Of a DNA stretch of 34,596 nt, positions 1,459 to 10,214 are shown in pieces; within the stretch, counting starts at the first letter, position 1; the number at the start of each line of letters is the position of its first letter. Origin of the DNA: a virus (lineage: Duplodnaviria; Heunggongvirae; Uroviricota; Caudoviricetes); IMG/VR virus record IMGVR_UViG_2541047860_000003, positions 1 to 34,596 of that record. One strand, written 5' to 3'. The position numbers were made by a program, and so were the translations under genes. The notes beneath the pieces were generated by a model that was given only the letters and a program-made list of their open reading frames with translations, had not been told where the DNA came from and did not search any database.

Positions 1459-2622
1459 TTACACATCATTAGTACCTTCCTTATTTTTTGACTGGGACAA
1501 ATTTGGGACCGATGGGTTCAGGATCGAGTCTATTTGCCGTGCGTGTTCGGTAAGGTGATTAGGTGCAAGGTGAGCATATCGACGAACCATTTCGATAGAC
1601 TCCCAGCCTCCCATTTCCTGTAACACTGACAACGGGACTCCGGCTTGAACCAGCCAACTTGCCCAGGTGTGTCTCAAGTCGTGAAATCTGAAATCATCAA
1701 TACCAGCCCGTCTCAGCGCCGCTTTCCAGGCTGTGTTTGCGTCATACCGCATCTTCCTTACTGTTGGCGCTTTCGTTCCGTCTGGTTTGGTACAGCTTTC
1801 CTTGTACACAAATACCCAACGGTGATGATTCCCGATTTGTTTTTTCAATACGCGACATGCAGTATCATTCAGCGCAACGCCAATTGCGCGGTTTGATTTA
1901 CTCTCTTCCGGGTTTATCCATGCCACCCGGCGCTGCATATCTATTTGTTGCCATTCAAGGTTGATGATGTTCGAGCGTCTTAAGCCTGTTGCCAGTGCAA
2001 ATTCAACAACAGACTTTAATGGCTCCGGACATTCATCAATCAGCCTTTGTGCTTCATGGGGCTCCAGCCAGCGGATCCGTTTATTCTTTGGTTGAGGCAC
2101 TTTAATAATTGGTGCCTTATCCAGCATTTTCCATTCACGCTCTGCGGCTCTTAGTAGGGCCTTTATAAATGAAAGATGCGTAGCCTTCGTTGCAACGGAC
2201 GCTGGTTTTGGCGTGTATTCTGGAACAGGTTTCCCTTTTTTTCTGCATGCTTCTGCCCTGAGTTTCCAGTTTTCCTCATGACGCCGGTTCGTCATTTTCT
2301 GCATTGCTGAATAAATTTTTGATTCAGTAATGTCTCTTAGTTGCATTCCTGCGAAATGTTGAAGCCAGAATCCGATCCGGCTTTTGTCATCGTCCAGTGA
2401 TTTTTTATGTGCTTTCTCTTCAAGCCACCTGACACACGCTTCCTCGAACGTTATATCAGGTATTTCACCAAGTTTGCTGACCCGCCATGCTTCAGCCTTT
2501 AGCTTGTCATGGAGTTCTGTCGCCTGCCTTTTGTCCTTTGTTCCAAGAGACTGTTTAAATCTTTTACCGTTCGGCAATGTGAAACTGGCGTACCATATTT
2601 CACCTCTGCGGAAGAGTGACAT
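1459..2622 (-). CDS. int: Tyrosine-type phage integrase
   Basis: 387-aa ORF 15 bp downstream of the tRNA; C-terminal catalytic region ...[42 protein letters not shown] fits the R..H-x-x-R..Y tyrosine recombinase signature. Confidence 0.85.
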
Positions 2623-6842: not shown

Positions 6843-7535
6843 TTAATTATGTCTCTTAAGGGTTTGAGACTGACTGATTAAGACCTTTCCAAAGACCATG
6901 AATCGGTGTTCGTTTTCGCTAGTAATTCCCCATTCACGGTAAATCTGGTTATCAGAAATCACCAGCAGTTTGTCAGGAATCATTTGAAGTCTTTTAACGT
7001 ATATTTTGTCATCAAAACCAAAGACATATATACCATCACCATCAAACTGATTGATGCTGACATCAACGAAGATGAGATCTCCTGGCTCAATGGTTGGACA
7101 CATACTGTCCCCACGAACGTTGATAACTTTGATGTGATTGGCTGGTCGTCCGCCGAACATTGATACAGCATTATCAGTTCTGTATTCGATGGCATGAATC
7201 ACATCAATGACATCACCGCCCTGGATAAGGCCATTTCCCGCACTGGCACTGATATCCAGCATTTCAATACGGAACACATCCTTCACCTGCGCAACATCCT
7301 CATTATTACTGTTTTTATATACAGTATTACTTTTGTGGGCAGAGGTAAAGAGATCAGCAATATCAACACCTAAGCTCTTGGCAATATTACTCAGTGTTTG
7401 TTCGGTAAATTGTTTTTGCTTACCCGTTTCTAAGCGCGAGATGTTCGCCGCATCTACTCCTATTGCTTCAGCGAGATCGGCGATTTTCATGTTCTTCGCT
7501 TGGCGAAGTTGTCTGACTCGGTTTCCTATGTTCAT
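6843..7535 (-). CDS. cI: CI-type phage repressor (HTH + S24 LexA-like peptidase)
   Basis: N-terminal HTH (QAKNMKIADLAEAIGVDAANISRLETGK), Ala-Gly site (SASAGNG), S24 motifs (GDSM ... KR); divergent from cro across an operator-bearing intergenic region. Confidence 0.9.
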   Translation of the reverse strand: MNIGNRVRQLRQAKNMKIADLAEAIGVDAANISRLETGKQKQFTEQTLSNIAKSLGVDIADLFTSAHKSNTVYKNSNNEDVAQVKDVFRIEMLDISASAGNGLIQGGDVIDVIHAIEYRTDNAVSMFGGRPANHIKVINVRGDSMCPTIEPGDLIFVDVSINQFDGDGIYVFGFDDKIYVKRLQMIPDKLLVISDNQIYREWGITSENEHRFMVFGKVLISQSQTLKRHN

Positions 7536-7632: not shown

Positions 7633-7893
7633 ATGCAATCACCATTACGAAATGTGCGTAAGGCGCATGGTTTCACTTTGCAGCATGTTGCTGCGGGTGT
7701 TCAAGTCAATCCAGCGACGTTGAGTCGTATTGAGAGGCTGGAGCAGATTCCATCTATCGAGCTTGCAGAACGTTTAGCCAATTTTTTTAAGGGTGAAGTC
7801 AGCGAAATGCAGATTCTTTATCCGGCACGTTTTCAATCTAGCCAAAACCAGAATGGGTTTAAACCACAGGAACAGGAGGTGAACCGTGGGTAA
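7633..7893 (+). CDS. cro: Cro-like HTH regulator
   Basis: 86-aa ORF with HTH (TLQHVAAGVQVNPATLSRIE), GGAGG SD, divergent from cI. Confidence 0.75.
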   Translation: MQSPLRNVRKAHGFTLQHVAAGVQVNPATLSRIERLEQIPSIELAERLANFFKGEVSEMQILYPARFQSSQNQNGFKPQEQEVNRG

Positions 7894-8437
7894 GCATCAC
7901 TGGAAAGTAGAAAAACAGCCTGAGTGGTACGTGAAAGCTGTCAGAAAAACTATCGCAGCGTTGCCGGGGGGGTACGCTGAAGCTGCTGACTGGCTGGATG
8001 TAACAGAGCACGCATTATTTAACCGCCTTCGTGCCGATGGCGATCAGATTTTCCCGCTGGGATGGGCAATGATTTTGCAACGTGCTGGTGGAACTCACTT
8101 CATTGCTGACGCTGTGGCGCAGTCTGCAAATGGCGTCTTTGTGTCTCTTCCTGATGTCGAGGATGTGGACAACGCCGATATCAACCAACGCCTGCTGGAA
8201 GTCATTGAACAGATCGGCAGTTATTCAAAACAGATTCGTTCAGCAATTGAAGACGGTGTAGTGGAACCGCATGAGAAGACAGCAATTAACGATGAGCTGT
8301 ACCTCTCAATTTCGAAGCTGCAGGAGCATGCAGCTCTGGTCTACAAAATCTTTTGCGTTTCAGAAAGTAGTGACGCCCGCGAGTGTGCAGCTCCGGGCGC
8401 CGTGGCGTGTCGTGACTGTGGAGAAACTAACGCATGA
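7886..8437 (+). CDS. CII-like lysogeny regulator (phage 186 CII/CP76-type, by position and size)
   Basis: 183-aa ORF with GTG start after AGGAGG SD, immediately after cro; family assignment from memory only. Confidence 0.45.
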
Positions 8438-8612
8438 ACAGTTTAACAACACACTACCGTCGCTCGCAACTGATTGCGCTTCCTGTACCGGGTGGAAAAG
8501 CGAAGGTGGAGTATTGCTATGCAGTAAATGTACCAGGTGACAGGGAAATTGTAACCCACAGCTTTGCAGAGTGGGCTGTGGGTGATTTCAACCGGCAGAA
8601 GGAGACAGTCCT

Positions 8613-8792
8613 TTGCGACAAGTTAACCGCTGGTTCAAAGATCACTACGGAGTGCCCGTCAGAGTCATTCGTTGGGAGCCGGAAACACAACGTGTTATCT
8701 ACCTCCGCGAAGGCTATGAGCATGAGTGCTTCAGCCCGCTCGAACAGTTTCGTCGTAAATTCAGGGAAATAGAGGTCGGTCATGAGCACTAA
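8613..8792 (+). CDS. DUF4222-like small protein (TTG start)
   Basis: Alternate frame reads ...[52 protein letters not shown], matching the recalled DUF4222 pattern; AAGGAG SD 8 nt upstream of TTG at 8613. Overlaps the listed 8434..8772 ORF in another frame. Confidence 0.35.
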
Positions 8793-9723
8793 ATTAACCG
8801 GCTATGTATGGGATGGTTGCGCTGCATCAGGCATGAAATTATCCAGCGTGGCAATTATGGCCCGCCTGGCTGATTTCAGTAATGACGAAGGTGTGTGCTG
8901 GCCATCAATTGAAACCATTGCCCGCCAGATTGGCGCGGGAATGAGTACCGTCAGAACGGCTATCGCACGGCTGGAAGCAGAAGGCTGGTTAACGCGTAAG
9001 GCGCGTCGCCAGGGTAACCGCAATGCGTCGAATGTTTATCAGCTTAACGTTGCGAAGCTTCAGGCAGCGGCATTTTCTCAACTGTCAGATTCTGACCCGT
9101 CAAAATCTGACGCATCAAAATCTGACCCGTCAAAATTTGATGCGTCGAAATCTGGCAAAAAAGCGGGTTTTCACCCGTCAGAATCTGGCGGGGATCCGTC
9201 AGTAAAATCAAAACATGATCCGTCAGATAAAAAACCTTCTCGTCCGGACGCTTCGCAACCGGACACGCAGACGGCTGAACAGGAGTTTTTAACTCGCCAT
9301 CCTGATGCGGTTGTATTCAGCCCTAAAAAGCGCCAGTGGGGAACGCAGGATGATTTGACCTGCGCACAGTGGCTCTGGAAAAAAATCATCGCCCTGTACG
9401 AGCAGGCCGCCGAATGTGACGGCGAGGTGGTTCGTCCCAAAGAACCGAACTGGACAGCCTGGGCAAACGAAATTCGCCTGATGTGTGTGCAGGATGGTCG
9501 TACTCATAAACAAATCTGCGAGATGTACAGCCGCGTCAGTCGCGATCCGTTCTGGTGCCGTAACGTGCTCAGCCCGTCGAAGCTGCGGGAAAAATGGGAT
9601 GAGCTTTCCCTGCGCTTATCGCCGTCCGTCAGCACGTACACCGAAAAACGCGAAGACCCGTACTTCAAAGCCAGTTACGACAACGTGGACTACAGCCAGA
9701 TCCCGGCAGGATTCAGGGGGTGA
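8782..9723 (+). CDS. Replication initiator, lambda O-like (HTH N-domain, repeat linker)
   Basis: 313-aa ORF; N-terminal winged-helix region (GMSTVRTAIARLEAEGWLTRKAR); internal tandem 15-bp repeats encoding SDPSK/SDASK as in iteron-bearing O-type genes. Confidence 0.7.
   Translation: MSTKLTGYVWDGCAASGMKLSSVAIMARLADFSNDEGVCWPSIETIARQIGAGMSTVRTAIARLEAEGWLTRKARRQGNRNASNVYQLNVAKLQAAAFSQLSDSDPSKSDASKSDPSKFDASKSGKKAGFHPSESGGDPSVKSKHDPSDKKPSRPDASQPDTQTAEQEFLTRHPDAVVFSPKKRQWGTQDDLTCAQWLWKKIIALYEQAAECDGEVVRPKEPNWTAWANEIRLMCVQDGRTHKQICEMYSRVSRDPFWCRNVLSPSKLREKWDELSLRLSPSVSTYTEKREDPYFKASYDNVDYSQIPAGFRG
9091..9150. repeat. Four tandem 15-bp iterons inside the O-like gene (putative phage ori)
   Basis: TCTGACCCGTCAAAA / TCTGACGCATCAAAA / TCTGACCCGTCAAAA / TTTGATGCGTCGAAA in tandem, followed by further CCGTCAG copies and an A-rich stretch to about 9240. 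Confidence 0.5.
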
Positions 9724-9725
9724 TC

Positions 9726-10214
9726 ATGAGTCTTTTGAATGACGTTCAGAAATTCATTGAAGCCCATCCGGGGTGTACTTCCGGAGACATTGCGGATGCT
9801 TTTGCAGGTTACTCACGACAGCGCGTTCTGCAGTCAGCAAGCAAGTTACGTCAGAGTGGGCGTGTGGCTCACCGTTGTGAAGGGGATACACGCAGACATT
9901 TCCCGCGGCTGACTGAGATACCGCAGGAGCCGGAACCGCAACCAGTTCGTGAATCCAGACCTGTGCGCAATTTCTATGTCGGCACTAACGATCCCCGGGT
10001 GATTTTGTGCCTGACCCGCCAGGCGGAAGAACTGGAGTCCAGGGGCTTATACCGTCGTGCTGCAACGGTGTGGATGGCGGCATTCCGTGAAAGCCACTCC
10101 CAGCAAGAGCGAAACAATTTTCTTGCGCGTCGTGAGCGGTGTTTACGGAAAAGCAGCAAGCGCGCTGTATCGGGTGAAGAGTGGTATCTGTCAGGGAATT
10201 ACGTGGGGGCTTAA
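9726..10214 (+). CDS. PerC-like transcriptional regulator
   Basis: C-terminal LESRGLYRRAATVWMAAFRESHSQQERNNFLARRERCLRK resembles the PerC/Pch motif as recalled; stop overlaps the next gene start (TAATG). Confidence 0.45.
   Translation: MSLLNDVQKFIEAHPGCTSGDIADAFAGYSRQRVLQSASKLRQSGRVAHRCEGDTRRHFPRLTEIPQEPEPQPVRESRPVRNFYVGTNDPRVILCLTRQAEELESRGLYRRAATVWMAAFRESHSQQERNNFLARRERCLRKSSKRAVSGEEWYLSGNYVGA

Follow-up and report, generated by a model that had tools for sequence, protein, structure and literature searches.

The ymfM locus of an SfII-like prophage probably encodes two proteins, YmfM and a DUF4222 protein, in overlapping reading frames

Overprinted gene pairs are known in phages, as exemplified by Rz/Rz1 of lambda and by the overlapping genes of phiX174. 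In such pairs one stretch of DNA codes for two proteins in different reading frames. Purifying selection acts on the older gene, and its overprinted partner gives a disordered, fast-evolving product. Here, we describe a similar pair at positions 8434-8792 of the IMG/VR virus record IMGVR_UViG_2541047860_000003, the whole stretch of which (34,596 nucleotides) is referred to as the window. It consists of ymfM, known from prophage e14 of Escherichia coli K-12, and of a gene for a DUF4222 protein that lies within the 3′ half of ymfM and runs past its end. We assign a probability of about 0.8 to the reading that both are genuine protein-coding genes forming a conserved out-of-frame pair. The pair resembles the lambda and phiX174 overlaps in the features named above. 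It differs from them in that only the C-terminal half of one gene (ymfM) is overprinted, that the constraint acts on openness and composition without acting on sequence, and that the overprinted frame ends in frame with the next gene and 9 nucleotides (nt) before it.

The closest described gene is ymfM of prophage e14 (b1148), which was characterized as an SOS-inducible inhibitor of cell division and proposed to be SfiC (Ansari et al., bioRxiv 10.1101/2020.11.19.390815). In that work, the ymfM "open reading frame" cloned in pBAD24 caused loss of the Z-ring and filamentation independent of SulA, SlmA, and MinC, and in a sulA background there was less filamentation when ymfM had been deleted. 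The original library clones carried ymfL(142-185)-ymfM-ymfN(1-92), and the ymfN-ymfK region was enriched in a screen of uropathogenic E. coli. The e14 gene occupies the same position as the one studied here, after ymfL and before an O-like gene. The 112-amino-acid (aa) product of the window is identical to the K-12 protein (NP_415666.1, "cell division inhibitor YmfM") at 109 of 112 residues over equal length. The three differences all fall in the YmfM tail, and the embedded DUF4222 protein is the same in both prophages (59/59 residues). The prophage of the window is apparently complete, SfII-like, inserted at proA/thrW, and has an intact replication gene, whereas the gene that follows ymfM in e14 survives as a chimeric remnant.

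The ymfM open reading frame (ORF) occupies 8434..8772 on the plus strand, from an ATG to a TAG stop (8770..8772). The DUF4222 gene lies on the same strand at 8613..8792, from a TTG to a TAA stop (8790-8792). A first-pass annotation of the window had placed two overlapping ORFs at these positions and had ascribed an AAGGAG Shine-Dalgarno (SD) sequence and a TTG start to the shorter one. Both observations were confirmed on the sequence: the SD sequence is found at 8599..8604, within the ymfM codons for Q-K-E and 8 nt upstream of the TTG at 8613. The shorter frame had also been called unlisted, which is incorrect, since it is present in the ORF listing at a minimum length of 30 aa. Codons start at 1 mod 3 in ymfM and at 0 mod 3 in DUF4222; the DUF4222 frame is -1 relative to ymfM, and ymfM is +1 relative to DUF4222. 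The overlap measures 160 nt (8613-8772). It leaves free the conserved N-terminal module of YmfM (N-module; aa 1-59, 8434..8610, plus strand), which is defined by alignment conservation and purifying selection. The overprinted tail (aa 61-112, 8614..8769, plus strand) is read from DUF4222 codon positions 2, 3, and 1′, and the ymfM stop is formed by the DUF4222 codon ATA (I53) together with the G of the following codon.

Profile searches were carried out with both translations. The 59-aa product matched Pfam DUF4222 (PF13973) with E=8.6e-19 and 67.3 bits (cut-off 27) over model positions 3-52 of 53, and it is identical at 59/59 residues to RefSeq WP_001250269.1, a "DUF4222 domain-containing protein". 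No Pfam match was obtained for the 112-aa product, which bears out the earlier statement that a DUF4222-like product exists only in the alternate frame. In PHROGs, the longer product matched phrog_1170 over residues 1-112 (E=4.6e-70). PHROGs keeps separate families for the 112-aa protein (phrog_1170), the 63-aa N-module (phrog_20047), and DUF4222 (phrog_1343). An NCBIfam search gave no match for the YmfM product, the DUF4222 product, or the other N-module types.

To compare the locus across genomes, loci were gathered by DUF4222 regardless of the upstream gene. The set comprised 34 loci, 33 of them complete, on contigs taken from one genome per species in about 15 enterobacterial genera, including Escherichia, Shigella, Atlantibacter, Citrobacter, Enterobacter, Kosakonia, Raoultella, Leclercia, Pantoea, Silvania, Phytobacter, and Buttiauxella. 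A start codon of DUF4222 is present in all 34 (ATG in 28, TTG in 4, and GTG in 2). By eye and uncounted, a purine-rich SD sequence (GGAG, GGAGGG, or AAGGGG) precedes it in most aligned loci and with all three N-module types; it appears weak or absent in a few, e.g., L022, L030, and L032. The comparison indicates that DUF4222 is a real conserved gene with its own SD sequence and start, and that its product is encoded only in the alternate frame.

The main evidence for the second gene of the pair is that its frame stays open across DUF4222. In 33 of the 33 complete loci, a +1-frame ORF beginning with M(N/T/S)SL... starts 167-265 nt upstream of DUF4222, right after a cII-like gene, extends 52-54 codons into DUF4222, and terminates at a homologous site. 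Both ORFs are intact and the alternate frame is conserved in every one of these loci, while the +2 frame is shut within 1-7 codons in most. A +1-frame stop can arise only from DUF4222 codons of the type xTA before A or G, or xTG before A. The expectation was calculated exactly, with the DUF4222 protein fixed and synonymous codons drawn from E. coli or local usage. The probability that the frame is open as far as the observed stop had a median of 0.04-0.05 per sequence (range 0.016-0.165); when frames were compared, it was about 0.05-0.06, and 0 stops were observed against 2.18 expected. The control frames showed no depletion, with 3.55 stops observed vs. 3.47 expected in the +2 frame, 6.55 vs. 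3.74 in the -0 frame, and 2.58 vs. 3.01 in the -2 frame.

The same avoidance is visible in individual codons. Codons for V, L, or I end in A or G in 0 of 116 cases before A and in 36 of 118 cases before C. Leu31 of DUF4222 is mostly encoded by CTG, and the following Arg by CGN in 34/34 loci, though AGR is used at many other Arg columns. At the DUF4222 column that forms the stop, rare codons are found (ATA in 24 sequences, TTA in 8, CTA in 1, and ATT in 1). Free-standing DUF4222 genes, which, unlike the one studied here, are not overlapped by an upstream ORF, carry 4 (Serratia BZS1), 7 (Citrobacter phiNP), 0 (Yersinia YeP3), 3 (Elizabethkingia EKP1), and 5 (L054) stops in the +1 frame, i.e., stops occur in four of the five. 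When the genes of the 33 loci and four phage DUF4222 genes were grouped by synonymous divergence, the 37 sequences formed 26 clusters. Between clusters a median of 46% of the codons for the same amino acid differ, and therefore synonymous sites have been extensively turned over. Within the population, both ORFs are intact in 79/79 IMG/VR copies (51 haplotypes). No nonsense variant was found in this sample of single-nucleotide polymorphisms (SNPs), but only about one was expected, hence this result is no evidence by itself. Altogether, the comparison indicates that selection has kept an open +1 frame across DUF4222, which is not a chance ORF. An antisense ORF of 90 aa (8517..8789, minus strand), in register with the DUF4222 codons, is open in 30/33 loci. 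It was not taken as a gene, since the chance expectation of its openness is already 0.46, or 0.60 given an open +1 frame; codon choice in DUF4222 probably gives rise to it as a by-product.

The type of selection acting on each segment was estimated as pairwise Nei-Gojobori proportions of synonymous (pS) and nonsynonymous (pN) differences among N-module types a and b. In the overlap, the DUF4222 frame gave a pS of 0.62-0.66 and a pN of 0.08-0.13, and the non-overlapped N-module gave 0.41-0.51 and 0.12-0.26, respectively (pN/pS of about 0.12-0.19 for DUF4222 and about 0.28-0.5 for the N-module). In the frame of the YmfM tail, pS was 0.08-0.16 and pN 0.24-0.28. The population SNPs show 18 synonymous and 7 nonsynonymous changes in the N-module; in the overlap, 14 are synonymous for DUF4222 and nonsynonymous for YmfM, and 1 is of the reverse kind. 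Purifying selection thus acts on DUF4222 as well as on the first ~58 aa of YmfM. A reduced synonymous rate in the overlap was looked for with a negative result, as the pS of the DUF4222 frame is not below that of the N-module. The synonymous sites of DUF4222, which are the second codon positions of the YmfM tail, are not slowed.

The tail is constrained in composition. Compared with synonymous shuffles that keep the frame open, the tail has a higher fraction of S, T, A, and G (0.52 vs. 0.41; higher in 33/33 sequences). It is poorer in hydrophobic residues (0.20 against 0.30, with 0/33 sequences above the shuffles) and in aromatic ones (0.03 against 0.08). The bias stems from an excess of C at third positions of DUF4222, which is confined to the overlap. 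There, C/(C+T) in two-fold codons is 0.74 and the share of C in four-fold codons is 0.36, compared with 0.51-0.57 and 0.19-0.25 in the flanking cII, N-module, and O genes and with 0.42 and 0.25 in free-standing DUF4222 genes. The sequence of the YmfM tail drifts freely, but it stays stop-free, polar, and low in hydrophobic residues. AlphaFold2 predicted DUF4222 to be an SH3/Tudor/KOW-like barrel, with a predicted local distance difference test score (pLDDT) of 84. The N-module was modelled as beta-beta-beta-alpha-alpha (pLDDT 56-73), and residues 67-112 of YmfM, with pLDDT <50, are predicted to be disordered. In phmmer searches, residues ~15-50 of the N-module matched, in several stretches, large Flg_new (Listeria-Bacteroides repeat) and DUF7507 repeat proteins (P0213, P0230, P0231, P0234, and P0245); these matches were set aside as probably reflecting a beta-hairpin pattern and not homology.

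The geometry of the 3′ end suggests why the frame may be kept open. The TGA of ymfL (8435-8437) overlaps the ATG of ymfM (ATGA). At the other end, the ymfM TAG lies 9 nt before the ATG of the O-like gene (8782), with which ymfM shares its reading frame (8434 and 8782 are both 1 mod 3), and abuts the SD sequence GAGG of that gene (8772-8775). In most of the 34 loci, a TAG or TAA likewise ends the +1 frame 9 nt before the first start of a long ORF and abuts AGG or AAGGA; in the remainder the distance is 18-21 nt or more. The DUF4222 stop varies in position across loci (+178 to +259); it overlaps the replication gene at its start, as it does in the window (ATGAGCACTAA). DUF4222 itself stands directly 5′ of a replication-initiator gene in every examined locus except one in Kosakonia (L024), where no long ORF follows it. 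Judged from these distances, the ymfL-ymfM-O arrangement would correspond to the classical layout for termination-reinitiation coupling.

We propose that ymfM codes for a folded, conserved N-module of ~58 aa followed by a ~52-aa tail overprinted on the +1 frame of DUF4222, and that the second gene codes for a 59-aa SH3-like barrel protein. Ribosomes starting at ymfM would read through the embedded DUF4222 gene and terminate just before the replication gene, and such read-through would keep ymfL, ymfM, and O translationally coupled. DUF4222 would be translated by independent internal initiation from its own AAGGAG and TTG inside ymfM. The tail would then be made as a disordered C-terminal extension or linker, the exact sequence of which would be immaterial.

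Serratia, Yersinia, Citrobacter, and Elizabethkingia phages carry homologues of DUF4222, with identities down to 33-50%, as free-standing genes immediately upstream of a replication gene. DUF4222 is the older and more widely spread gene of the pair. The N-module also occurs alone. In Entomohabitans, a 78-aa N-module gene stands directly before the O-like gene, with no DUF4222 there; in phiNP and L054, N-module genes of 65-73 aa are followed by Rha or KilA-N/ANT genes and then by free-standing DUF4222. A search of the whole library with the N-module found both short forms (59-77 aa) and forms of 111-123 aa. Wherever the two modules adjoin, in every examined locus, the N-module ORF reads through DUF4222.

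A further variant is found in SfV orf37 (L042 1052-1888), ST64B sb41 (L043 1007-2215), and the "antirepressor" of Stx2a_1447 (L044 1052-2203), which are Ash-Rha proteins of 278-402 aa. They have the same MNSL... start after a cII-like gene and the same +1 reading across DUF4222; unlike ymfM of the window, they have no stop at the end of DUF4222, and the frame runs into a Phage_ASH domain (aa 117-210), which begins straight after the overlapped stretch. In the Stx2a_1447 protein a Phage_pRha (Rha) domain follows at aa 223-308. The DUF4222 gene of these phages, whose product is 62.7% identical, starts with GTG, has an open frame, and is wholly nested out of frame. In SfV-type phages, the overprinted stretch thus appears to be a linker in a multidomain protein. 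Since the frame continues there into the Ash and Rha domains, these phages give independent support for translation of the +1 frame across DUF4222. In SfV (orf38, L042 1881-2117) and in L044 (2200-2424), a second small ORF of 74-78 aa lies directly before the replication gene. By eye, ORFs of the orf38 type show a DUF4222-like pattern (G..L.V..VD...V..EP.G...PL..F); they have no Pfam match.

The genes around the overlap form a lambdoid immunity and replication block. The left end of the stretch carries proA (1-1254), tRNA-Thr(CGT) (1369-1444), and an integrase ORF (1459-2622, minus strand), which identifies the element as an SfII-like prophage at thrW. A cI-like repressor gene (6843-7535, minus strand) and a cro-like gene (7633-7893, plus strand) are followed on the plus strand by the ymfL/CII-like regulator gene (7886-8437, 183 aa; Pfam Phage_CP76, E=3.7e-13), whose counterparts are annotated as ymfL or cII in SfII and E. 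coli genomes. Downstream of the overlap, also on the plus strand, lie the O-like replication initiator gene (8782-9723, 313 aa; Pfam HTH_36, DnaD_N, and RP-C) and PerC/YfdN (9720-10214). Counterparts of the O-like gene are annotated as replication protein O or primosomal protein. Over the 600 bases around the overlap, Shigella phages SfII and SfIV as well as several E. coli phages match the window at 98-99% identity. An Rfam search found no RNA family in the ymfM-DUF4222 region.

Existing gene models of the locus conflict. The curated MG1655 sequence (NC_000913.3 1203822-1204180) has ymfM only (1203822-1204160) and no DUF4222 frame, which would fall at 1204001-1204180. In the sampled E. coli genomes (including L006 and L007), the Prokaryotic Genome Annotation Pipeline (PGAP) annotates DUF4222 only and leaves 8438-8612 bare, i.e., ~175 nt after ymfL. 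GenBank records of phages disagree as well, with the 339-nt ORF in SfII, PhiR29_1, and 720R4 and the 180-nt ORF in 569R4. In the record of phage vB_EcoS-569R4 (L001 1029-1638), ymfL is annotated in two pieces ("putative protein YmfL" twice), which suggests a frameshift or sequencing error there. In E. coli NCCP 13914 (L005 2035-3706), an IS3-family element sits where the ymfM N-module meets the start of DUF4222, and PGAP calls "ymfM, missing C-terminus" plus an intact DUF4222. A cluster of 68-aa proteins (P0043, 40 members) has a foreign C-terminal junction directly after the N-module and may stem from a similar insertion event.

Several points weigh against the view that both frames are genuine genes. 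The case for translation of the two frames is drawn from sequence comparison, and early genes of the e14 type stay repressed during normal growth. Relatedness among the loci means that the 33 cases (or 26 clusters) are not fully independent. The tail shows no purifying selection at the amino-acid level (pN > pS in its frame); what suggests a role for it as protein is stop avoidance and the composition bias, and the latter might instead come from a codon preference that this DUF4222 clade has for unrelated reasons. Confidence in the AlphaFold2 model of YmfM is low, with a mean pLDDT of 53. As to the mechanism, coupling is read from distances only, and a second coupled cistron seems superfluous, given that the DUF4222 stop overlaps the replication gene start as well.

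The first-pass annotation had offered two explanations of the overlap: either the long ORF is an artefact past about 8600, or a frameshift fuses a small upstream gene to the DUF4222 frame. The first was right in part, as no amino-acid conservation is seen past ~8610 and the first ~58 codons are a separate module. An extreme form of it, in which only the first ~60 codons of ymfM are real and the frame past ~8610 is open by chance or composition and without significance, would also fit the absence of a Pfam match to the tail, its predicted disorder, the PGAP models that leave it unannotated, and the existence of the N-module alone as a gene of 65-78 aa. We consider it improbable, because the frame is open in 33/33 loci at an expectation of ~0.05 each, with 0/116 V, L, or I codons ending in A or G before A. 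The other frames are not depleted of stops, whereas free-standing DUF4222 genes do carry +1 stops; moreover, the position of the stop is conserved and built from rare codons, and the composition bias is confined to the overlap. A mutational or programmed -1 frameshift that yields an N-module::DUF4222 fusion as a real product is less probable still and can hardly be maintained. It could draw on the DUF4222 frame being open for 27 nt upstream of the TTG in this prophage and on a few in-frame fusion proteins in databases (P0030, P0052, P0059, P0065, and P0090). However, the window contains no X_XXY_YYZ slippery heptamer in the ymfM frame, and the matches in 9/34 loci are scattered and not conserved. 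The DUF4222 frame of L040 and of L021 is already closed 0-3 nt upstream of its ATG, and no indel was found in the ymfM/DUF4222 region relative to the 79 IMG/VR population copies. DUF4222 has a start codon of its own in all loci (ATG in 28/34) and an SD sequence in most, and in distant phages it is free-standing. The fusion proteins are rare, each has its own junction, and they come mostly from read-assembled data; they appear to be sporadic, rare indel variants. In the sequences compared, a mutational or programmed frameshift is thus unsupported. Neither explanation holds, and the choice between artefact and frameshift was a wrong one.

Two other alternatives accept the overlap as real. According to one of them, the tail is not mainly a translational bridge but an essential part of the division inhibitor, e.g., a degron or a low-complexity segment that binds the membrane or FtsZ/FtsA. 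Among small division inhibitors of phages, many are short peptides or partly disordered ones. The constant length of 52-54 aa would agree with such a role, as would a composition in which selection favors S/T/A/G over hydrophobic and aromatic residues. On the other hand, the tail lacks positional conservation, pS of the DUF4222 frame is not reduced, the N-module occurs in nature with unrelated tails of 10-20 aa, and the corresponding segment of SfV-type phages serves as no more than a linker to Ash/Rha domains. We regard this alternative as possible, though it is not the one we favor. The other, which we hold to be rather unlikely, is that the filamentation assigned to ymfM is due wholly or partly to the embedded DUF4222 product, i.e., that the 59-aa SH3-like protein, in place of the 112-aa YmfM, may be SfiC of e14-type prophages or may be required by it. 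The published experiments used whole-ORF clones and deletions only and treated ymfM as a single-product gene; in the literature searched, we found no paper linking ymfM with the DUF4222 frame and no description of a frame-specific mutant. An ORF clone that ends at 8772, such as that in pBAD24, includes the SD sequence, the start, and residues 1-53 of 59 of DUF4222, which is the entire Pfam domain. The original library clones include the complete gene, and by the geometry of the locus any deletion of ymfM removes the DUF4222 start. Since the published clone and deletion affect both products, they cannot tell which of them blocks cell division and FtsZ-ring formation, and DUF4222 is the more conserved of the two. 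YmfM is nevertheless the more likely agent of the SfiC phenotype because the SD sequence of the pBAD24 vector drives its ATG; the internal TTG is weaker and would presumably be occluded by ribosomes translating ymfM. In addition, the fixed place of DUF4222 before the replication gene suggests a role linked to replication.

If YmfM and DUF4222 are both made from this stretch, as we propose, both gene models deserve annotation, and the locus can be used as a benchmark for gene finders that drop same-strand overlaps. It is also a well-sampled natural case of overprinting, which is useful for studying the origin of overlapping genes. The question of the SfiC phenotype was open for 35 years; ymfM is now credited with it, and the gene is used as a tool for making filamentous E. 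coli. As half of ymfM would be co-encoded with a second, more conserved protein, genetic attributions to ymfM would need frame-specific controls.

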